DNA of 64,000 nt from the NCBI GenBank assembly GCA_944391965.1, contig CALXVH010000003.1:22551-86550 (forward strand). Direction: 5' to 3'. This DNA is from an uncultured Clostridia bacterium (GTDB taxonomy: Bacteria; Bacillota; Clostridia; TANB77; CAG-508). Below, in pieces: positions 4,346 to 50,624 of the stretch. Position 1 is the first letter of the stretch; the number at the start of each line of letters is the position of its first letter. The translations under genes were made by a program, and so were the position numbers. Under the pieces are notes generated by a model, which worked only from the letters and a program-made list of their open reading frames with translations, was not told the origin of the DNA and made no database searches.

Positions 4346-5098
4346 ATGAAAGTATTAATAAATGGAATAAATGGTAAAATGGGACAAGAAGTTGCAAATG
4401 TAATAGATAATGATAAAGATATTTTACTTCTTGGTGGTGTTGATAAAGAAAACACTGGAATTTATACATACCCAGTTTATACAAATACTTCAAACATAGA
4501 AGAAAAACCAGATGTTATAATTGATTTTTCTGTTCCAGTAGCTACTCTAAATATCTTAAAATATGCTAAGGAAAATCATGTTCCTATTGTTATTGCAACA
4601 ACTGGATTTACAGAAGAACAATTAAATGAAATAGAAGCTTACTCAAAAGATATTCCTATTTTTAAATCTGCTAATATGTCATATGATATAAATTTAATGG
4701 CAAAAATTGTAGCATCTTTAGCTAAAGAATTACCAGATACTGATATAGAAATTATAGAAACACATCATAATAGAAAAATAGATAGTCCAAGTGGAACAGC
4801 TTTATTTTTAGCAGATAGCATTAATGAAGCAAAAGACAATAAGATGGTTTATGAATTTGACAGACATAATAAACATGAAAAAAGAAATAAATTAGAAATT
4901 GGATTCTCTTCTATTAGAGGTGGAAATATCGTAGGTGAACATACAGTACAATTCTTTGGTGAGCATGAAACATTAGAAATAACACATAAATGTTATTCTA
5001 GAACTGTTTTTGCAAATGGCGCTGTTATGGCTGCTAAATACATAGTTAATAAAGATAATGGAATGTATAATATGAATGATTTAATTAATAATAAATAA
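4346..5098 (+). CDS. dapB: 4-hydroxy-tetrahydrodipicolinate reductase
   Basis: It has the N-terminal GINGKMG dinucleotide fold and the signature ETHHNRKIDSPSGTA. Confidence 0.92.
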   Translation: MKVLINGINGKMGQEVANVIDNDKDILLLGGVDKENTGIYTYPVYTNTSNIEEKPDVIIDFSVPVATLNILKYAKENHVPIVIATTGFTEEQLNEIEAYSKDIPIFKSANMSYDINLMAKIVASLAKELPDTDIEIIETHHNRKIDSPSGTALFLADSINEAKDNKMVYEFDRHNKHEKRNKLEIGFSSIRGGNIVGEHTVQFFGEHETLEITHKCYSRTVFANGAVMAAKYIVNKDNGMYNMNDLINNK

Positions 5099-5140
5099 AA
5101 ACAGCTCGTGCTTTGTTATAAAAGCACGAGCTGTTTTTAT
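5097..5140. terminator. bidirectional rho-independent terminator after dapB
   Basis: AAAACAGCTCGTGCTT / AAGCACGAGCTGTTTT 16-bp stem flanked by A/T runs. Confidence 0.85.
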
Positions 5141-5173
5141 TGCATAGAAAAAATCTTAGATTTTAACTTTTGC

Positions 5174-5620
5174 TTACATTACACCAACTCTGTAAAAACT
5201 GTCTCCAACTTTAAAGCCAGCATCGTTGGTTTCCGAAAGTTTCGTTTTCAACACTTGAACCCTTTCTTCTGATATGCAGACAATTGAAACTTCTTCGTCA
5301 CCTACATTTGTACAGTCTGCTTTATATTTCACAAACATAGGCCATGTGGAAATAGTACTATTTGTACTCTTTGGCATTGCAGCACAAAACATACAACCTT
5401 TTTCTTTTATGGTTGAATCGGTCTCCGGCATTTCTGCAAAAGATTCGATGTCATAAACCACATCCTTTGATAGTTCAAACTTGTTCTTATTTAGGATCCC
5501 ATATTCGCATATTGTGTCGTCTTCCACATCTGCAACAATAATTACAAAATGTGGATTCTCATCCTCTTGCATTCTCCGTCCATAAAGGTCGAAAATCTTA
5601 CAGTTTTTAAGTTTTCTCAT
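5174..5620 (-). CDS. hypothetical protein (island 1, gene A)
   Basis: 148-aa ORF with RBS AAAGGAG. It is GC-richer than its neighbours. The N-terminus LKNCKIFDLYGR...FVIIV is paralogous to the N-terminus of ORF 6472..6987. Confidence 0.7.
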   Translation of the reverse strand: MRKLKNCKIFDLYGRRMQEDENPHFVIIVADVEDDTICEYGILNKNKFELSKDVVYDIESFAEMPETDSTIKEKGCMFCAAMPKSTNSTISTWPMFVKYKADCTNVGDEEVSIVCISEERVQVLKTKLSETNDAGFKVGDSFYRVGVM

Positions 5621-5693
5621 GTTGTTTCTCCTTTCTTAGTTCCTCGCTACATTTAGCAAGTTTGCATCTTCTTTGTACATTTTTTGCAGTACA

Positions 5694-5722
5694 ATTTTAG
5701 CACATATTTACTTAAATTTCAA
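5694..5722 (-). promoter_or_regulatory. sigma-A type promoter for gene A
   Basis: On the minus strand, TTGAAA, a 17-nt spacer, then TAAAAT with an upstream TG (TGCTAAAAT). The predicted 5' UTR is about 75 nt. Confidence 0.5.
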
Positions 5723-5785
5723 ATATTGAATAAGTCATGAATTGTAATATCATATTAACTAAATATATTTTATACTTTACTTTAA

Positions 5786-5832
5786 TTAAAAAGAATAGAA
5801 GAACATCATAATAAAAATGTCCTCCTACTCTT
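5786..5832 (-). terminator. strand-specific terminator after gene B
   Basis: The minus-strand RNA AGAGUAGGAGGACAU pairs with AUGUUCUUCUAUUCU through several G-U pairs and is followed by a U-run. Confidence 0.6.
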
Positions 5833-5845
5833 TTTTGAAACAATA

Positions 5846-6433
5846 TTAAATTTTAGAAAGTGATACATATTTGCCTTCCGTATTACTGGCTTTTTTCACC
5901 TCTATATTGGCATTCCACATTCCTTCTGAATTTCTTGCAAACACTATGGCTTTCCGAAGGTTCTTTGAATCCTCATAAGTTAAGTATAATGGTAATTTCT
6001 CTTTTCTGTCCAATTTTATTCTTATAAAATAAACATTGGATAAAAAGTCACCAAGGTCACATTCTCCATCCACAAATCGAAGGCGTCTTATTACCTTTAC
6101 CTTATTCTTTTTTGCTTTTGGAATAAAAACATCATCCGGTACAGCTTCTGTTGACCTTACAAGGGCATAAATCTCACCAGTACATGGATCATATTCATCC
6201 GCAAAAACTATACGTTTTTCTGTAATTTCTTTCAAGACTAAATTATAAATCCATCGATTTGTTTTTAGCATTTTCCTTTTTACATTTGGAATTACAAATT
6301 CCACATATGGTTCTCTTTTTGTCTCTTTGTTATAATCTGGAATACGTAATGTAACTATTTCATCCTTTTGACGAACACTTACATTACCATTCCATTTCCG
6401 TTTGCATATTCCTTTGTTAATAAATAATCTCAT
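5846..6433 (-). CDS. hypothetical protein (island 1, gene B)
   Basis: 195-aa ORF with RBS GGAGG, 38 nt downstream of gene C. I recognise no motif. Confidence 0.65.
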   Translation of the reverse strand: MRLFINKGICKRKWNGNVSVRQKDEIVTLRIPDYNKETKREPYVEFVIPNVKRKMLKTNRWIYNLVLKEITEKRIVFADEYDPCTGEIYALVRSTEAVPDDVFIPKAKKNKVKVIRRLRFVDGECDLGDFLSNVYFIRIKLDRKEKLPLYLTYEDSKNLRKAIVFARNSEGMWNANIEVKKASNTEGKYVSLSKI

Positions 6434-6471
6434 AATACCTCCACAATTTAAAGTTTGTTTTTACTTCACTA

Positions 6472-6987
6472 TTACTCATCATATTTTGATGATAATTCAT
6501 AGAATTCATGCTCTCGGTAAATAAAACCTTTATCTTTTACATTTTCCAGTTTTACATGGATTTTAAAAATTGGTGAACATGGTTCTAATAATACTCCAGC
6601 TATTCTAATAATCTTTTCTTTTTCTTCCGGATGCTTCATTACATAGTAAACCAGTCTTGCCCAATCAACAAATGCTTCTTCGATTTCTTCACCAATTGCA
6701 GAATAAAAAGTAAATTTTCTCAGCCTTATAATACCAAAATTTAATGCTTCAATTTTAGCTAATGATGAGATTGTATACTCTTCTTCTAAGAAGTCGTCTT
6801 CATCTGAAAATCGTGTTTGAAAGATTCTTGTTTTTGGAAAATATAATCCTTCCCTATAAATTATATCTTCCGATTCATTCTTGCCTACAACTATAATAGG
6901 CATTATTTCTTCAGTTTGTAGTCTACCTAAAATCCGTCCTTCCTTGTTGAATATTTTGCAATTTTTTAATTCTCCTTTTTTCTCCAT
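6472..6987 (-). CDS. hypothetical protein (island 1, gene C)
   Basis: 171-aa ORF with N-terminus LKNCKIFNKEGR...PIIVV, similar to gene A. Confidence 0.7.
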   Translation of the reverse strand: MEKKGELKNCKIFNKEGRILGRLQTEEIMPIIVVGKNESEDIIYREGLYFPKTRIFQTRFSDEDDFLEEEYTISSLAKIEALNFGIIRLRKFTFYSAIGEEIEEAFVDWARLVYYVMKHPEEKEKIIRIAGVLLEPCSPIFKIHVKLENVKDKGFIYREHEFYELSSKYDE

Positions 6988-7054
6988 ACTGTTCCTTTCT
7001 GATGCTCATTACATTTGATGAGTCTTACACTAACTTCAACTTTGCTACACATAA

Positions 7055-7083
7055 ATTTTAGCATATTTTGTTTTTCTTTGCAA
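7055..7083 (-). promoter_or_regulatory. sigma-A type promoter for genes C-B
   Basis: On the minus strand, TTGCAA, a 17-nt spacer, then TAAAAT (ATATGCTAAAAT). The architecture is the same as the gene A promoter. Confidence 0.5.
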
Positions 7084-7138
7084 ACTTATGTATACCTAAC
7101 GTATTAATTTAATTCCTCCTTTATGCATCCAAAAAAAA

Positions 7139-7194
7139 GGGATTTAAGGAACGTCCCCAAATCCCGAATTTTTTCGCAGGACGCCTCAAATCCC
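7139..7194 (-). repeat. REP-like element doublet, locus R2, 3' of clpC
   Basis: GGGATTTAAGGAACGTCCCCAAATCCC plus a degenerate unit AGGACGCCTCAAATCCC. Confidence 0.85.
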
Positions 7195-7200
7195 TTTTCC

Positions 7201-9660
7201 TTATTTTGTAGCTTTTACCTTTAATTCTACTTTATCATCTTTAGCTACTAATTTTGCTTCTAGACCAGGTTTAATATTTCCATCTAATATTTCTTCTGCT
7301 AATTTGTCTTCTACAATATTTTGTATTGCTCTACGTAGTGGTCTTGCACCAAATTCTTTGTCTACACCTTTTTTAGCAATTAATTCTTTAACAGATTTAT
7401 CTATTTTAATATTTAAACCTTGTTCTACTAATCTTTGTTCTACATTCTTTAATAGTAAGTCTATAATGCTGTTAATTTCTTCATCATTTAATTTATGGAA
7501 TACTATAATATCATCAATACGATTTATAAATTCTGGTCTTAATTGTTTCTTCAATTCTGCCATTACGTTTTTCTTTATCTCTTCATATTCCTTAGCTTCA
7601 TCTTCTTCTGCTGAATTTGTAAATCCTAAAGATTTCTTTTCTGTAATTAATCTTGCACCTATATTTGATGTCATAATTATTACTGTATTCTTAAAGTTAA
7701 CTGTTCTTCCTTGGCTGTCTGTTAATCTACCATCTTCTAGAATTTGTAATAACATATTCATAACATCTGGGTGAGCTTTTTCTATTTCGTCAAATAATAT
7801 TACAGAATATGGTTTTCTTCTTATTTTCTCTGTTAATTGTCCACCATCATCAAAACCAACATATCCTGGAGGTGCACCAATTAATTTAGCAACAGAATGT
7901 GGTTCCATATATTCTGACATATCTACTCTTATCATAGCATCTTCAGTTCCAAATAAATTTTCTGCTAATGCTTTAGATAATTCTGTTTTACCAACACCTG
8001 TTGGACCTAAGAATAAGAATGAACCTATTGGTCTATTAGGATTTTTAAGTCCTACCCTACTTCTTCTTATAGCTTTTGCAACTGCATCTACTGCTTCATT
8101 TTGACCAATTACTCTTTTATGCAATTCTTTATCTAAATTCTTTAATTTCTTATTCTCGTCTTGGGTAATTTTTGCTGCTGGAATTCCAGTCCAACTTGCA
8201 ATTACCTTAGCAATATCTTCCTCTGTTAGCTTTGGAATTGCTTTGGTCTTTTTACTTTTCCATTTATTTCTTTCTGCTTCTAATTCTTCTTTTAGTTTAT
8301 TTACTTCGTCCCTTATTTTTGCAGCTTTTTCAAATTTTTGTACTTTTACAGCAGCTTCTTTTTCTTGATTCATCTTTTCTATTTTTTCTTCCATCTCTTT
8401 TAAACTATCTGGTTCTTCTAAAGAAGATAATCTAATTTTGGAAGAAGCTTCATCAACTAAATCTATAGCTTTATCTGGTAAAAATCTATCATTAATATAT
8501 CTGCTAGATAATTCTACAGCTGCATTTATAGCTTCATCTGTAATTTTTATATTATGGTGAGCTTCGTATTTATCTCTTATACCTTTTAATATTTCTACAG
8601 TTTCTTCATGAGTTGGTTCATTAACAGTTACAGGGCTAAATCTTCTTTCCAACGCACTATCTTTTTCTATATATTTTCTATATTCATTTAAAGTTGTAGC
8701 ACCAATTAATTGAATTTCTCCTCTTGCTAATAAAGGTTTTAGAATGTTAGCAGCATCAATAGCTCCTTCTGCTGAACCAGCACCTACTATTGTATGAATC
8801 TCATCTATAAATAGAATTACATCTCCAGCTTTTTTTACTTCATTTAAAGCTTTCTTTATTCTTTCTTCGAAGTCACCTCTATATTTTGCACCAGCAATCA
8901 TACTAGATAAATCGATTGTTACAACTCTCTTATCCTTTAAAATTTCTGGAACATCACCTTGTACAATTTTTTCTGCTAATCCCTCTACAACTGCTGTTTT
9001 ACCAACACCAGGTTCACCAATTAAACAAGGGTTATTTTTTGTTCTTCTAGAAAGAATTTGAATAACTCTTTCTATTTCATTCTTTCTTCCAATTACAGGG
9101 TCTAATTTTCCAAGACTTGCACTTTTAGTTAAATCTGTTCCATATTGATTTAATGTTGGTGTAGAATTAAAGCTTCCTGTTTTTCTATTTTGAGAACCAT
9201 CACTACTGTTTATATCTTCATCTTCTTCTAATACTTTTACTATTTCATTATATAATTTTTGTGGATTAATACCTAAATCTAATAAAATTCTTACAGCAAT
9301 ACTGTCTGCTTCTCTCATTATTCCTATTAAAATGTGCTCTGTTCCTATATAATCTGAATCTAGTTTTCTAGCCTCTAAAAATGCATTTTCTAACACTCTT
9401 TTAGTTCTAGGTGTAAATCCTAAACTTGTTATAGTTCTTTCTTCATCTTTGCCTATTAGATTCTCTATTTCATCTAGTACATTTTCAGAATTTATATTTT
9501 GGTTTTCTAGCACTTTACTTGCAACACCATTTTCCTCTTCTGTTAACCCATATAATATATGTTCTGTTCCTATATAGTTATGTCCTAATTCTATTGCAAT
9601 TTCTTTTGCAATTTCTAAAACATTTTGTGCACTATTAGTAAATTTATATGTCATCATCAT
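7201..9660 (-). CDS. clpC: ATP-dependent Clp protease ATP-binding subunit ClpC
   Basis: 819 aa with Clp_N repeats, two AAA+ modules (GEPGVGKTA, GPTGVGKTE) and a UVR linker. Confidence 0.95.
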   Translation of the reverse strand: MMMTYKFTNSAQNVLEIAKEIAIELGHNYIGTEHILYGLTEEENGVASKVLENQNINSENVLDEIENLIGKDEERTITSLGFTPRTKRVLENAFLEARKLDSDYIGTEHILIGIMREADSIAVRILLDLGINPQKLYNEIVKVLEEDEDINSSDGSQNRKTGSFNSTPTLNQYGTDLTKSASLGKLDPVIGRKNEIERVIQILSRRTKNNPCLIGEPGVGKTAVVEGLAEKIVQGDVPEILKDKRVVTIDLSSMIAGAKYRGDFEERIKKALNEVKKAGDVILFIDEIHTIVGAGSAEGAIDAANILKPLLARGEIQLIGATTLNEYRKYIEKDSALERRFSPVTVNEPTHEETVEILKGIRDKYEAHHNIKITDEAINAAVELSSRYINDRFLPDKAIDLVDEASSKIRLSSLEEPDSLKEMEEKIEKMNQEKEAAVKVQKFEKAAKIRDEVNKLKEELEAERNKWKSKKTKAIPKLTEEDIAKVIASWTGIPAAKITQDENKKLKNLDKELHKRVIGQNEAVDAVAKAIRRSRVGLKNPNRPIGSFLFLGPTGVGKTELSKALAENLFGTEDAMIRVDMSEYMEPHSVAKLIGAPPGYVGFDDGGQLTEKIRRKPYSVILFDEIEKAHPDVMNMLLQILEDGRLTDSQGRTVNFKNTVIIMTSNIGARLITEKKSLGFTNSAEEDEAKEYEEIKKNVMAELKKQLRPEFINRIDDIIVFHKLNDEEINSIIDLLLKNVEQRLVEQGLNIKIDKSVKELIAKKGVDKEFGARPLRRAIQNIVEDKLAEEILDGNIKPGLEAKLVAKDDKVELKVKATK

Positions 9661-11888: not shown

Positions 11889-11911
11889 TTTGACTTTGAC
11901 TTTCTTTGACC
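11889..11911 (-). promoter_or_regulatory. CtsR operator (direct heptad repeats)
   Basis: The minus strand reads GGTCAAAGAAAGTCAAAGTCAAA, just downstream of a TATAAT at 11923-11928. Further heptads lie at 11849-11855 and 11867-11873. Confidence 0.8.
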
Positions 11912-13297: not shown

Positions 13298-13389
13298 TGT
13301 AAATTATGATATAATATAATTGTTACACATAAATATTCAGCAAAATTAAAAGCTGAAACACTAAAGAAAAAAAGAAAAGGAGAATGTGT

Positions 13390-14028
13390 ATGGCAGTTTT
13401 ATTATTAGTAGTAATGTTGATTCTCAATTTCGTGATCTCTTGGTCTAATGCTCGGTATGTGGGCTATTATTGGACCGAATCAAAAGAAATTGGCGGTAGC
13501 TTCAGACGATATGTAGTCGCCGGCTATGTGATGGCAATAGCAGGATTTACTATGGTATATGCTTATCTTTTGCTTATCATAAGTCCTGTATTCTTGCAGA
13601 TGGCAGACATAGACCCTGAAGTAATTTTACAGATTGAACAGCTTTCAGCAGACTTAATTTATCTGTTTACAGTTGTTACAATTGTTCCCACAGGTTTTTA
13701 TATTTGGATTAGATCGTTAAAAACCGCCTGGGAAGAAAGAACTCTGTCATCCATTTTGACGGGAGGTTGGAACACTTATGCCCAGCTACATAATACAATA
13801 AGTGTAGCTCGGAATGCTCCAAGTGCCCTTGGTAGAGTTGCAAAAGCGCTCTTTGGTGGAAAAGGTAAGAAAAAGGATAATACGATTGTAATACTGGTTG
13901 CAATCTTTATTCTTATAGTTGCCATTTTCGGGGGTTATTTTACAGCCTCTGCCATAATGAAAAAAGCAGACAGAGAATACGATATGTTCGCAGATCTGCA
14001 AAGAAAACATCCAGAAATCGAACAATAG
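13390..14028 (+). CDS. hypothetical polytopic membrane protein (island 2)
   Basis: ORF 13384 trimmed to the second ATG, which is 7 nt from GGAGA. It has 4-5 hydrophobic segments. A 60-nt hand count gives about 45% GC. Confidence 0.65.
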   Translation: MAVLLLVVMLILNFVISWSNARYVGYYWTESKEIGGSFRRYVVAGYVMAIAGFTMVYAYLLLIISPVFLQMADIDPEVILQIEQLSADLIYLFTVVTIVPTGFYIWIRSLKTAWEERTLSSILTGGWNTYAQLHNTISVARNAPSALGRVAKALFGGKGKKKDNTIVILVAIFILIVAIFGGYFTASAIMKKADREYDMFADLQRKHPEIEQ

Positions 14029-22569: not shown

Positions 22570-23157
22570 TCAGATGATTTGTGCTGATGTACTCGGATTT
22601 TCTACTTCTGGAAGGTCGTCAGACGTAATATAGATTATTATCAAATCTATAATATCTGACAAGGTATCTACTCTGTCTTCCAACTGTTCATTCTGATACT
22701 CGATAAAATTCAGCTCCTGCTGAAGTTGCTCTGTTCTCTGTTCTAGATAGTTCAGTTTTGTATTCATACTTCCATAGTAGTATCCTAAAAAAGCACAGAG
22801 CACTGCTATAAGAATCCATTTTATATTCTTGTACTTTTCAGCGTTTGCTTCAGTGTTCTCTAACTGTTCATAATCTTCTTCGAGCTCTTCTCTGGTCCAC
22901 TCTTCGAAGCGTTCATGTCTCCTTGCTTCTTCCCGAAGCTCCTCTGTGCTATACTCAGAAAAAGTATAATTGCTTCTTAACAAATCTTCCAACTCCTGAT
23001 CAGAAAATTCGTTCAGATTAATATCTGGAAGAAGAACTCTTAATTTCTTCTCCAACTCTTTCCGAGTATACTTGGAGAAATCCTTATACACACGGATTTC
23101 TTCTTCCAAGTCTTTACGGGTCATTTTGTCAAATCTGTCTTTAAAAAACATATGCAT
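22570..23157 (-). CDS. hypothetical single-pass membrane protein with repeated F-x-x-[YW]-[TS]-x-x-E-L-E motif (island 3)
   Basis: 195 aa with five motif copies (FDKMTRKDLEEE, FSKYTRKELEKK, FSDQELEDL, FSEYSTEELREE, FEEWTREELEED), one TM helix and a coiled coil. Its start is coupled to the upstream stop (TAAATG). Confidence 0.65.
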   Translation of the reverse strand: MHMFFKDRFDKMTRKDLEEEIRVYKDFSKYTRKELEKKLRVLLPDINLNEFSDQELEDLLRSNYTFSEYSTEELREEARRHERFEEWTREELEEDYEQLENTEANAEKYKNIKWILIAVLCAFLGYYYGSMNTKLNYLEQRTEQLQQELNFIEYQNEQLEDRVDTLSDIIDLIIIYITSDDLPEVENPSTSAQII

Positions 23158-23721: not shown

Positions 23722-23742
23722 GTGTTACATATTAATATAAAC

Positions 23743-23965
23743 GTTTGATAAGAGAATAGTAACATATTTAATTTTTTAAGAGAGTTTACGGTTGGTGTAA
23801 GTAAATAAAATTTATATGTGAATCTACTCTTAGATGTTTTTAGTGAAAACTAAACCGTAAGTTAGGCGGTTACCCTACTAATTGAGTGTATTATTTTTAT
23901 AATAACTTAAGGTGGTACCGCGGATTATATTCGTCCTTATATTTTATATAAGGACGATTTTTGTT
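23743..23965 (+). promoter_or_regulatory. T-box riboswitch leader, serine specifier (UCU)
   Basis: The stem I base is TGATAAGAGAATAGTA and the AGAGA bulge is present. The specifier loop is GAA-TCT-A at 23820-23826. The T-box sequence is AACTTAAGGTGGTACCGCGG at 23904-23923. The terminator TCGTCCTTAT...ATAAGGACGATTTTT lies at 23931-23965. Confidence 0.88.
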
Positions 23966-24302: not shown

Positions 24303-25586
24303 ATGATAGATATTAAATTTTTAAGAGAAAATCCTGACATTGTAAAGGAAAATATAAAGAAAAAATTTCAAAATGAAAAACTAGTTTTAGTTGATGAAGT
24401 TATAGATTTAGACAAAAAATCTAGAGAAGCTACACTTGCTGGTGACGAATTAAGAAATAAAAGAAAAACACTAAGTACTGAAATTGGTAATTTAATGAAA
24501 AATGGACAAAAAGAAGATGCTGAAAAAGTTAAAGCTGAAGTTCAAGAAATTAACAGTAAATTAGAAGAAAATGAGACTTTAGAGAACAAATATGCAGAAG
24601 AAATTAAAATTAGAATGATGAAAATTCCAAACATCATGCACGAGTCTGTTCCAATAGGAAAAGATGATAGCGAAAATGTAGAAATTGAAAAATTTGGAGA
24701 ACCTGTAGTTCCAGATTATGAAATTCCATTCCATGGTGAAATTTTAGAAGCTTTAGGTGGATTAGACTTAGATAGTGCAAGACGTGTTGCAGGACAAGGT
24801 TTTTACTACTTAATGGGAGATGTTGCAAGATTACATTCTGCTGTTTTAACATACGCAAGAGACTTCATGATTAATAAAGGTTTTACTTATTGTATACCTC
24901 CTTATATGATTAGAAGTGATGTAGTAACTGGTGTTATGAGTTTTGAAGAAATGGATGCAATGATGTACAAAATTGAAGGAGAAGATTTGTACTTAATTGG
25001 TACAAGCGAGCATTCTATGATTGGAAAATTTAAAGGACAAATTCTAAAAAAAGAGGATATGCCTTATACAATGACATCATATTCTCCATGTTTTAGAAAA
25101 GAAAAAGGTGCACATGGATTAGAAGAACGTGGTGTATATAGAATTCATCAATTTGAAAAACAAGAAATGATTGTTGTATGCGAACCAGAAGATTCTTGGG
25201 ATTGGTATAATAAAATGTGGTCATATACAGTAGAATTCTTTAGAAGTATGAATATTCCAGTAAGAACTTTAGAATGTTGTAGTGGTGACTTGGCAGACTT
25301 AAAAGCTAAATCTTGTGATGTAGAAGCATGGAGTCCAAGACAAAAGAAATATTTTGAAGTTGGAAGCTGTTCTAACTTAACGGATGCACAAGCTCGTAGA
25401 TTAGGAATTAGAATAAAAGGTGAAAAAGGAAACTATTTTGCACATACTTTAAACAACACTGTTGTAGCTCCACCACGTATGTTAATTGCAATTATGGAAA
25501 ACAATTATCAACCAGATGGAAGTGTAATCGTTCCAGAAGTATTAAGACCATATATGGGTGGATTAGAAAAAATTACAGTAAAATAG
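24303..25586 (+). CDS. serS: seryl-tRNA synthetase
   Basis: 427 aa with an N-terminal coiled-coil arm and class II motifs (FRKE, GSGLA-type region, TLNNT). Confidence 0.95.
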   Translation: MIDIKFLRENPDIVKENIKKKFQNEKLVLVDEVIDLDKKSREATLAGDELRNKRKTLSTEIGNLMKNGQKEDAEKVKAEVQEINSKLEENETLENKYAEEIKIRMMKIPNIMHESVPIGKDDSENVEIEKFGEPVVPDYEIPFHGEILEALGGLDLDSARRVAGQGFYYLMGDVARLHSAVLTYARDFMINKGFTYCIPPYMIRSDVVTGVMSFEEMDAMMYKIEGEDLYLIGTSEHSMIGKFKGQILKKEDMPYTMTSYSPCFRKEKGAHGLEERGVYRIHQFEKQEMIVVCEPEDSWDWYNKMWSYTVEFFRSMNIPVRTLECCSGDLADLKAKSCDVEAWSPRQKKYFEVGSCSNLTDAQARRLGIRIKGEKGNYFAHTLNNTVVAPPRMLIAIMENNYQPDGSVIVPEVLRPYMGGLEKITVK

Positions 25587-48977: not shown

Positions 48978-50624
48978 TTAGAAATATGGCGAATAAAAGT
49001 AGAAAAATATTTCTATATATTTCTCTTTTACTCCCATCTTTTGCTGTGCCTTGGAAAATTCTTCTTTGCTTATAAAACCATTATCTATAGCCTCTAGCAC
49101 CTTTAGAGATTTATCCAAATCAGCATTTTTTGTTGAAAGATTATTGAGAGAGAATTGCATCACTTCTCTTCTGACGCCTTCCTTATAAGTTTTCATCGAT
49201 GTTTCTGTTACTTCTTTTAATAATTCTGGAGAACTATGTTTTTCTTTTTGTGTAGATGCATGCCCTAGTAACACGCTCAGAGCTTCCATTTTATTTTTGG
49301 CTGTTTTAACTTTTGAGTCTAACTGCTTTATCTCATTAATTGTTAGCTCAAAAAAAGTTTCTTCAACAGCTTCTTTAAGTTTTTGCTCTTCTTTATCTGT
49401 AATAAATGGTGTTTCATCTTCCTTAATTTTTAATAAAAACAAGCTCTCTAAAAATTTCCAATCAGCTTTGTCTACACCCCTCTTTTCCATCTCATTAGCC
49501 ATAATTGGTCTTGTAAAATAAAACATTTGGAAAAAAAAGCTGATGACATTTAGTATATCTTCATTTGCGACCGGTTTTTTATACACATAATCTACATCAA
49601 AATCTTCTAGCACTTCCAATAAAATTTCTTTTATTTTCCGTGCCATTACAACAGCTTCATTCCTTACAATATTCTTCTCCTCTTTTGTTAGAGTGAAATA
49701 AATTGCAAGGAAATTTTCGTCATGCATAATAATTGCTTGAGCAAGATTAAAATATAAATTTTCATCCTGCAAAGACTTTCCATTGCATTCTGTTTTTATG
49801 TCTATGACATATTTCTCCATTTTTTGTATCATCGTGCTATTAAATAAGCCGCAATCATATAACAAATACTGCTTAGACATTGTTTTTTCCTTCCAGAAAG
49901 CAACTCTTTCTTTAGGCAGTTTCACCATAATATTCTCAAACAGCATTTCTCTAAAAATACTATTTTCCAAAATTGCCCAAAGTAAAGATGCACTCTCCCA
50001 GCCTTTATCCAGTATATCCAAAATTATTACAATATAATAAGTTATGCGATTTGCCAATTGTTCCGCATATCTGCCAGATATATTTCTTATTTTGCTTAAA
50101 ATTTGATCAGGCAATATTATTCCTGACAAATCTGTTTCTGTTGTAATTTCAAAAGCATCCACCCCATATAGGTCAACCATATGAATTCTGGGCAGATATT
50201 CTTCTGCTTTTACTTCTATTAACACGTTTTCAAGAAAGTCTTTATTCTCAAAAGCTTCCAGAATCGTGTCTATAGTATGCTTTTTTGCAATTTTTTTGTA
50301 TGCATCTTTTAGCTGAATTGTTTTTCCCAAAGTTGCTAACGCAATTTGGGTTAACAAGTCATACTCCTCGCATATTTGTTTTTGGGTTTCGTTCATTTCA
50401 TTGTAGAATATCTGTTGAACTCTGTCCCAAAGCATCATAGCAGTATTTTTTCTTTCCGGATCCTCGTGATCTACACGATAAAACCGGTTTAAATTCATTG
50501 CCGAAAATTTTAGCGAACTTAATTCCTCCTCTCTAAAGTCTTTCGCCACAAGTTTCTTTAAATTTCCAAAGTACAAATCAAACTCTTTTAATTCCTTTGG
50601 TCTTAGTTTTTTTCGAATAATCAT
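48978..50624 (-). CDS. hypothetical 548-aa helical protein (island 6)
   Basis: Long ORF with RBS GGAGG, GC-richer than its neighbours. I recognise no motif. Confidence 0.65.
   Translation of the reverse strand: MIIRKKLRPKELKEFDLYFGNLKKLVAKDFREEELSSLKFSAMNLNRFYRVDHEDPERKNTAMMLWDRVQQIFYNEMNETQKQICEEYDLLTQIALATLGKTIQLKDAYKKIAKKHTIDTILEAFENKDFLENVLIEVKAEEYLPRIHMVDLYGVDAFEITTETDLSGIILPDQILSKIRNISGRYAEQLANRITYYIVIILDILDKGWESASLLWAILENSIFREMLFENIMVKLPKERVAFWKEKTMSKQYLLYDCGLFNSTMIQKMEKYVIDIKTECNGKSLQDENLYFNLAQAIIMHDENFLAIYFTLTKEEKNIVRNEAVVMARKIKEILLEVLEDFDVDYVYKKPVANEDILNVISFFFQMFYFTRPIMANEMEKRGVDKADWKFLESLFLLKIKEDETPFITDKEEQKLKEAVEETFFELTINEIKQLDSKVKTAKNKMEALSVLLGHASTQKEKHSSPELLKEVTETSMKTYKEGVRREVMQFSLNNLSTKNADLDKSLKVLEAIDNGFISKEEFSKAQQKMGVKEKYIEIFFYFYSPYF

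Follow-up and report, generated by a model that had tools for sequence, protein, structure and literature searches.

A likely recombination-shuffled cassette array of two undescribed protein families in the clpC-dapB slot of uncultured gut Clostridia

Tandem strings of non-identical immunity paralogues have been described for type VII secretion systems (T7SS), where recombination between conserved blocks changes the copy number of esaG in Staphylococcus aureus and of tipC in Streptococcus (PMC9484751). Here we analysed a 64-kb stretch of low-GC Clostridial DNA (28.5% GC), hereafter the window, which carries an island of three small genes, A, B and C, between dapB and clpC. We compared it with related contigs and loci, labelled L001-L039, of which L011 comes from the same species as the window. 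The comparison indicates that the island is very probably one version of an array of self-contained cassettes that recombination shuffles in the clpC-dapB slot, a statement that covers both the architecture and the evolutionary mechanism. The locus as such is of the variable paralogue-string or hotspot type, which is already known; what is new is the two protein families and the family-specific leader.

Among published systems, the esaG/tipC strings appear to come closest in anatomy (PMC9484751). Alike are the tandem, diverged paralogues, the small cytoplasmic products, the strain-variable copy number, the conserved blocks at gene ends and in intergenic DNA with variable sequence between them, and the deletions and mosaics left by recombination (PMC9484751). 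The differences are equally plain. The known strings lie in the ess/T7SS locus beside the toxin genes esaD and telC, whereas no toxin or secretion gene was found in any locus here; the family formed by A and C (the A/C family) has no match in Pfam, among PDB sequences or among solved folds; each cassette here has its own promoter and conserved leader hairpin; and the paralogues are far more diverged (22-30% identity). Two features that define membership of an immunity family, a toxin or secretion context and a family or fold match, are thus missing. In the S. aureus nuSa-alpha lpl cluster (PMC9484751), the copy number of tandem paralogues also varies by recombination at a conserved internal block; however, the lpl products are secreted lipoproteins while A and C have no signal peptide, and the conserved block here comprises promoter, leader and 5' end rather than the gene centre. 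Core defence hotspots, for example those of Pseudomonas aeruginosa (PMC10250203), share the fixed slot between housekeeping genes and its strain-variable, unrelated cargo. In contrast, the cargo here consists of small orphans without a PADLOC match, the slot measures only 0.3-5 kb, and no known defence system was seen in it, Wadjet genes lying only beside a distant, off-site homologue of B.

On one side of the island are dapA, an HD-like gene and dapB, all on the plus strand, and on the other clpC-mcsB-mcsA-ctsR on the minus strand. The three open reading frames (ORFs) and both promoters of a preliminary description of this DNA were all found in place on the minus strand, each promoter with a TG extended -10. 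In window coordinates, the features are:

5094..5141, bidirectional terminator common to dapB (plus strand) and gene A (minus strand), the slot's right-hand border
5174..5620, minus strand, gene A, an ORF of 148 aa
5621..5693, minus strand, leader of the gene A cassette with an ACAAAG box, a hairpin and the CAGAAAGGAG ribosome-binding site, from covariance-model matches
5643..5660, minus strand, hairpin ahead of the ribosome-binding site of cassette A, or 7-4-7 palindrome, CTTGCTA-AATG-TAGCGAG, from RNAalifold and pair counts
5694..5722, minus strand, promoter of cassette A, TTGAAA-17-TGcTAAAAT, extended -10, direct repeat D1 shared with the C promoter
5788..5835 (about), minus strand, intrinsic terminator closing the C-B transcription unit, a 20-bp stem flanked by an A-tract and a U-tract
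5846..6433, minus strand, gene B, an ORF of 195 aa
6472..6987, minus strand, gene C, an ORF of 171 aa
6988..7054, minus strand, leader of cassette C, with the hairpin CTCATC-AAATGT-AATGAG at 7005-7022
7055..7083, minus strand, promoter of cassette C-B, TTGCAA-17-TGcTAAAAT, with ATACATAAG ahead of it
7139..7165, minus strand, clpC terminator, the slot's left-hand border, kept in all relatives

The proposed division into two transcription units, C-B and A, is supported in silico, since the gap between C and B is 38 nt, a terminator follows B (-23.8 kcal/mol, z -5.6) and A has a promoter of its own. Transcription is predicted to start at about 5687 and 7048. The right-hand terminator has 21-nt arms of perfect complementarity around a 6-nt loop, and the same element borders the slot in L001 and L006.

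The gap between clpC and dapB is a hypervariable hotspot, and it varies within one species, defined here by clpC products 97-98% identical at the protein level. The slot was found to hold A alone (L001-5, L038), a 64-aa gene and A (L031-34, L037), a 174-aa gene and A (L035), B-A with C cleanly deleted (L036), or C-B-A (the window, L011, L012, L039). Long arrays occur in L006, L007, L013 and the sister species L014; their genes encode, in aa, 82/88, 147/150, 160/163, 171 (L006 and L007 only), 175/203, B, 166/176 and 155/157, and L006 and L014 have a common gene order. Paralogue strings in related metagenome-assembled genomes (MAGs) reach six or seven members, and their slots hold as many as seven or eight small genes. 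In other sister species B stands alone in the slot (L023/24), and in L015 and L025-27 it lies behind one or two membrane-anchored paralogues of 389/405 aa. All loci of the A/C family lie between clpC and dapB, and their Pfam-annotated flanks show only housekeeping genes.

Some of the other cargo has features of its own. The 389/405-aa proteins (L015 246-1415; L025 5670-6839; L026 4115-5332 and 5670-6839) carry the membrane anchor at the N-terminus, and two of these paralogues are nearly identical over about 130 residues and divergent thereafter. They have no Pfam, PADLOC or PDB match; an FGE-sulfatase-like NIYDLAGN..EWT motif noticed by eye found no support in any of the three and was dropped. 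A small family of 64-88 aa opens many versions of the array (the clpC-A gap of L031-34 and L037; L006 254-520; L014 6181-6429); these genes have a different promoter of their own and evolve fast, with 32% identity between L006 and L014.

Homologous recombination is suggested by where the breakpoints and repeats lie. The repeated 5' blocks are sites of deletion and insertion, and so is a duplicated clpC terminator. In L036, the promoter, the leader and the first five codons of C are fused to the ribosome-binding site of B. Inside the long arrays we found a second, diverged clpC terminator hairpin (L006 2455-2500; L014 about 7760-7800), directly upstream of a C-like cassette, and the extra gene block is therefore bracketed by terminator repeats. 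Between the window and L011, C and B are identical (synonymous divergence, dS, about 0), A differs by 10% (dS 0.46), and the flanking clpC and mcsB show dS values of 0.17 and 0. Altogether 12 distinct A alleles were counted in 13 loci, reassorted relative to their neighbours. For an origin of the A-only haplotype by recombination between the leaders of C and A, the upstream region in L001 gives no clear signal: it is A-like at its 3' end and, further upstream, equally like C and A. Very probably, then, the array occupies a hotspot in an uncultured Clostridium lineage of the human gut, in the intergenic DNA that the clpC terminator and the convergent dapB terminator delimit. Cassettes of the new paralogue family, together with unrelated cargo, are gained, lost and reassorted in this fixed slot, with B riding behind C in this strain and standing alone elsewhere.

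A and C are paralogous over their full length. They belong to a new, lineage-restricted family, whose members are small, acidic proteins of the cytoplasm with a mostly beta structure. A and C align over 150 residues in BLASTP (31.6 bits, E 1e-6), and all pairs among A, C and five L006 paralogues align end to end. In a 19-sequence alignment, a conserved N-terminal motif, L-x-N-C-K-x-F...G-R-R, and a conserved C-terminal motif, L-x-D-I-N-E-x-G-F.....F-Y, enclose a variable middle. Gene C matches the family hidden Markov model with E 1e-61, and its sole database homologue is P0001 (50% identity), located on L006, the contig with a row of eight small genes. The 166-aa array gene, with an hhalign E of 1.4e-4 against the family over 150 columns and the family-specific leader, is probably a very distant member; a 174-aa relative of it is the gene that fills the slot in L035. 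A is acidic (isoelectric point, pI, 4.8), as is C (pI 5.3), and the AlphaFold2 (AF2) model of A is mostly beta (predicted local distance difference test, pLDDT, 91; predicted template-modelling score, pTM, 0.87). No hydrophobic or transmembrane segment and no secretion signal was found in A, B or C (maximum KD19 1.15). Neither tblastn nor the leader model revealed a further copy in the window.

These alignments change the picture drawn in the preliminary description. The N-terminal similarity of A and C that it reported holds in BLASTP, but the C-termini it called unrelated belong to the same 150-residue alignment and share the GF..FY motif. Its polymorphic-effector model, a constant N-terminal domain joined to variable C-termini, is rejected because homology runs along the full length; a secretion signal is likewise missing. 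Nor do the three families form a co-occurring unit, as B is found without A/C genes and A without B and C. The broader suggestion of a variable, conflict-type cassette, on the other hand, is strengthened by the hypervariability of the slot within one species and by the paralogue strings of related MAGs.

The cassettes are alike upstream as well as within the proteins, and each family member has an extended -10 promoter of the sigma-A type to itself. In the window, L001, L006, L012, L013 and L014, self-promoted genes of the A/C family are preceded by the same order of elements: ATACATAAA-TTGnnA, 17 nt, TGnTAAAAT, a ACAAAGTTGAA-like box, the hairpin, whose loop is usually AAATGT, then CAGAAAGGA, 6-8 nt and ATG. 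This promoter-leader architecture is not found at B-only genes, at the 389/405-aa genes or at the 64-88-aa genes. The leaders measure about 60-67 nt, which agrees with the 60-75 nt estimated before. A promoter scan alone was not above chance for the region, with 11 sites where shuffled sequence gave 12.6. By covariance modelling of the leader (model R1), 25 cassette leaders were matched at E 8e-7 or better, including those of A (60.2 bits) and C (74.6 bits); the rest of the 64-kb window and the related loci, about 390 kb in all, gave no match. Because global identity is a poor statistic in such AT-rich DNA (0.67 between the upstream regions of A and C against a shuffled baseline of 0.60, z 2.5), we used a leave-one-class-out model, R2, rebuilt without any C-class sequence to avoid circularity. 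R2 recovered the window's C leader with 47.2 bits (E about 2e-5), compared with 18.8 bits for the best background in the 64 kb, and gave the A leader 68.1 bits. The two upstream regions are thus homologous above chance, and the leader is conserved between paralogues although the proteins are only 22-30% identical. The duplication of promoter and 5' gene end between A and C, which had been noted from the sequence, is borne out.

Within the leader, one hairpin stands out. It is short (5-6 bp) and energetically weak (RNAalifold -1.3 kcal/mol), but in a model-based alignment 96.9% of its cells are paired, with double-sided changes in 4 of the 5 pairs across paralogue classes. The covariation score of 0.687, against 0.312 in shuffles and reached by none of 500 of them, comes from an alignment fitted to the structure and from related sequences. 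When the hairpin position was slid as a control, pairing dropped to 19-63%. The minimum free energies of whole leaders are not unusual (z -2.2 to +1.6), and the description of both leaders as structured was therefore an overstatement of this single conserved hairpin. A permissive Rfam scan of 4800-7500 gave only spurious matches of microRNA models on terminators.

B is a different protein. It is strongly basic (pI 9.7, net charge +14.5), and its alignment (A2) contains an invariant block, F-x-D-x-E-x-D-x-G-x-F..NVY, and an invariant DD pair; the invariant acidic residues include D100/D101 and D122/E124/D126. Its AF2 model is mostly beta (pLDDT 86.7, pTM 0.87). We considered B as a distant member of the A/C family, but hhalign gave a probability of 0.1% and the idea was discarded. 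At 90% identity, B has 43 homologue clusters, none of which is named. Distant homologues (36-40% identity) occupy other chromosomal sites and never have an A/C gene as neighbour. In one lineage (L028-30), such a homologue adjoins the type II Wadjet genes JetC2/JetD2 and a HipA-like candidate defence gene (PADLOC PDC-M03A). The JetC2/JetD2 pair, which looks complete, and the HipA-like kinase lie directly upstream (L028-L030 22-6750); after the homologue come a gene for a PG_binding_1 protein and a helix-turn-helix gene of the XRE type, with the mraZ cell-division cluster beyond them. The Wadjet block is replaced by a GH94 gene in L008, and in L022 the homologue lies between a Na/H exchanger and uvrB. 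On the side of the databases, we observed that the 90%-identity cluster of P0015 lumps the unrelated proteins C (171 aa) and B (195 aa), which is probably why a search with C did not return C itself.

A/C and B are two undescribed protein families, both without a match among solved structures. Pfam, PHROGs, NCBIfam and PADLOC returned no match for A, B or C, and running Pfam on every aligned member (19 and 30 sequences) gave no consistent weak signal. DUF2024 (E 0.016 in 2 of the 19 members) was treated as chance, and the weak matches of B to Spore_GerQ and HSP20 were also at chance level. Profile searches against PDB sequences found nothing. Foldseek searches with the A and B models against the PDB gave no match (best E about 0.05, template-modelling score below 0.25), nor did the A model match the predicted viral structures of BFVD (score below 0.3). 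The A/C family is tiny, with about 12 clusters: from 1.84 billion representatives its profile retrieved no more than 14 proteins, of which P0069 (1288 aa, 7 stretches) is an artefact of low-complexity repeats. The island thus has no assigned family, as the preliminary description had it, even after searches by profile, by structure and in defence libraries. In genome scans, both families were confined to uncultured Clostridia or Clostridium MAGs from the human gut, including the Hadza, and from one goat colon; the only name given by sources in the clusters of A, B and C is 'hypothetical protein'.

A, B and C are taken as real genes on account of their ratios of nonsynonymous to synonymous change (dN/dS) of 0.10-0.32 and of the pLDDT of their models (91 for A, 87 for B). 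In comparisons with orthologues from related contigs, A has a dN/dS of 0.10-0.25, B of 0.12-0.30 and C of 0.16-0.32, and the flanking clpC, mcsB, dapB and dapA have 0.02-0.11. Selection on the three genes is purifying and three- to seven-fold more relaxed than on core genes. Their composition had been called foreign, and this holds in part. G+C content at third codon positions (GC3) has a median of 0.135; at 0.33, A exceeds the 95th percentile of 55 ORFs, and B and C are moderately high at 0.23 and 0.20, but the island's overall GC of 0.312 lies only at the 80th percentile of 1.9-kb windows, and several other ORFs of the window share such values. Three high-GC3 ORFs without a Pfam match are unrelated to A, B and C: 13384-14028 (plus strand, 0.33), by eye membrane-protein-like; 22570-23157 (minus strand, 0.39), by eye a coiled coil with a transmembrane segment; and 48978-50624 (minus strand, 0.29).

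For function, we chose the immunity-repertoire reading of A/C because the esaG/tipC anatomy is the closest published. By this analogy, the A/C proteins, small and intracellular, could serve for binding or neutralising, as a repertoire that is specific to each strain, and B could be a separate, nucleic-acid-directed accessory module, a possibility that we put forward tentatively. The conserved termini of A/C proteins would act as scaffold and the variable middle as specificity, and each protein would counter a different variant of an incoming threat, for example a competitor's toxin or a phage protein. The shared leader would let one regulator or RNA feature control the whole A/C set. B, basic and with its invariant acidic D-x-E-x-D block, may be a nucleic-acid-directed module of the same accessory or defence type; the position of its distant homologue beside type II Wadjet and the HipA-like gene speaks in favour. 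A further-reaching version seems quite unlikely to us: an unrecognised cassette system of gut Clostridia, each cassette made of promoter, structured leader and new-fold ORF, which would be gained, lost and reshuffled at the fixed slot by homologous recombination via leader and terminator repeats and provide every strain with a different repertoire of neutralising proteins against toxins or phages, with the hairpin as the handle of a dedicated regulator.

Several observations weigh against this functional reading. Across about 40 loci, we found no toxin, T7SS, LXG/WXG or secretion gene within 6-10 kb. Neither sequence nor fold resembles a known immunity or defence family, with PADLOC and the Pfam Imm families included in the comparison. 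The hairpin data are also fitted by a 7-4-7 DNA palindrome (CTTGCTA-AATG-TAGCAAG versus CTCATTA-AATG-TAATGAG), and the element could just as well be a DNA operator. When A alleles are compared, the middle of the protein shows only a mild excess of replacements (variable sites 0.44-0.46 versus 0.27-0.33), and overall dN/dS is below 1. Moreover, the common A-only haplotype carries an A that seems to be in decay, where its ribosome-binding site has changed from GGAG to TGAG, its start codon from ATG to TTG and the family-invariant R15 to Cys (L001 5882-6402; cluster of P0009); a truncated A form of 102 aa (P0099), which ends before the C-terminal motif, is found on 132 contigs. The genes are accordingly dispensable. 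For annotation, gene callers choose various downstream starts in the eroded A.

An anti-phage defence or abortive-infection-like hotspot, in which B and/or A/C would be new small defence proteins and phage pressure would drive the turnover, is unlikely, yet it has several points in its favour. A variable slot between conserved core genes recalls the published core defence hotspots (PMC10250203), genes are present or absent within one species, GC3 is atypical, and the distant B homologue of L028-30 lies directly beside JetC2/JetD2 and the PDC-M03A gene. However, PADLOC matched none of A, B, C and the L028 B homologue, and no enzymatic, NTPase or nuclease domain was recognisable. The Wadjet context concerns B only and a single lineage, with the GH94 (L008) or Na/H exchanger-uvrB (L022) surroundings seen instead, and the A/C family never adjoins a known defence gene.

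A physiological accessory role outside any conflict, with the genes coding, for example, for niche-specific regulators or small stress- or sporulation-linked proteins, tandemly duplicated and co-regulated through promoter and leader, we consider improbable to a similar degree. Purifying selection in every orthologue pair would suit it, as would the ordered paralogue set kept in two species (L006 and L014), the absence of conflict-system genes nearby and the conserved cis-regulatory block, which implies common regulation. The extreme gain and loss within one species, the erosion of A and the very narrow phylogenetic range speak against it, and Pfam, NCBIfam and PDB matched no regulator, spore or stress family.

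The neighbourhood raises the question of a link to ClpC. If A/C proteins were adaptors, anti-adaptors or substrates of ClpC, expressed with the CtsR regulon, one would understand why the family is confined to the site immediately downstream of ctsR-mcsA-mcsB-clpC and is oriented like these genes; an adaptor might also be expected to combine conserved termini and a variable middle. We nevertheless regard this as very unlikely. In the window, the only good match to the canonical CtsR operator is GTCAAAGAAAGTCAAAGTCAAA within the promoter of ctsR (11895-11910, minus strand), and no operator of this kind (tandem GGTCAAA heptads) was found in 5174-7200; control of the island by CtsR was accordingly rejected. 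The strong clpC terminator intervenes, each cassette has its own promoter, and A/C proteins show no similarity to MecA, YpbH or McsB. The same slot also accepts unrelated cargo, the 389/405-aa and 64-88-aa genes, and position therefore reflects the hotspot, not function. Beside the operator, an extra GGTCAAAG copy (GTCAAA repeat) was seen immediately 3' of it, just ahead of the ctsR start.

In chromosomal integron arrays the genes are co-oriented, small and mostly orphan, their content varies between strains, and a repeated element separates the cassettes. The island shares co-orientation, small and mostly orphan genes, variable content and an inter-cassette repeat, but here the annotated flanks lack an integrase, every cassette has a promoter of its own, and the repeat is situated 5' of the ORF, within the transcribed leader. 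An origin as an integron-like cassette array, or as what is left of a mobile element such as a prophage or plasmid bearing morons or anti-defence genes, would explain the small co-oriented orphans, the atypical GC3, the strain-variable content and the repeated blocks between cassettes; it is nonetheless highly improbable. Neither family has a relative among the 2.9 million contigs of IMG/VR, in INPHARED phages (A and B searched) or in PLSDB plasmids (B and C searched), and A has none among BFVD folds. The Pfam-annotated flanks are housekeeping genes and contain no integrase, transposase or recombinase, and none of about 40 loci has a phage or mobile-element gene nearby. The cassettes are self-promoted, and no attC-like element was seen, no formal attC model having been run.

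A type II toxin-antitoxin-like pair, with acidic antitoxin C upstream of basic toxin B, has in its favour the 38-nt gap, the single promoter, the antitoxin-first order and the opposite charge (pI 5.3 vs 9.7), but is hardly credible and largely refuted because B-only and C-deleted loci exist: B occurs without an A/C-family gene in L023/24, behind 389/405-aa genes in L015 and L025-27, and without C or any A/C member in L008, L016-22 and L028-30, L036 keeps B behind C's promoter with C cleanly deleted, genes of the C type belong to a family mostly without a B partner, and no toxin-antitoxin family was matched.

Elsewhere in the window, Rfam placed a T-box leader (RF00230, 112.7 bits) at 23736-23941 on the plus strand, upstream of a 427-aa ORF (24303-25586). 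No other Rfam family passes the threshold in the window, which contains no transfer RNA genes.

The carrier of this array is a common, uncultured human-gut Clostridium: the exact A, B and C proteins occur on 177, 198 and 180 public contigs, respectively (about 180-200; the longest, of 1.8 Mb, has the exact B and C proteins), and carrier MAGs include CAMMLJ01 and CAAEUE01. The slot differs between strains of one species and is therefore a candidate strain marker, and it may also help to determine how strains compete or resist phages in the gut. With their confident models, both families would be new entries for family and fold catalogues, and a new cis-regulatory element may be present in the conserved leader. 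Should A/C indeed be immunity-like, paralogue strings of this kind can exist away from toxin and secretion loci.

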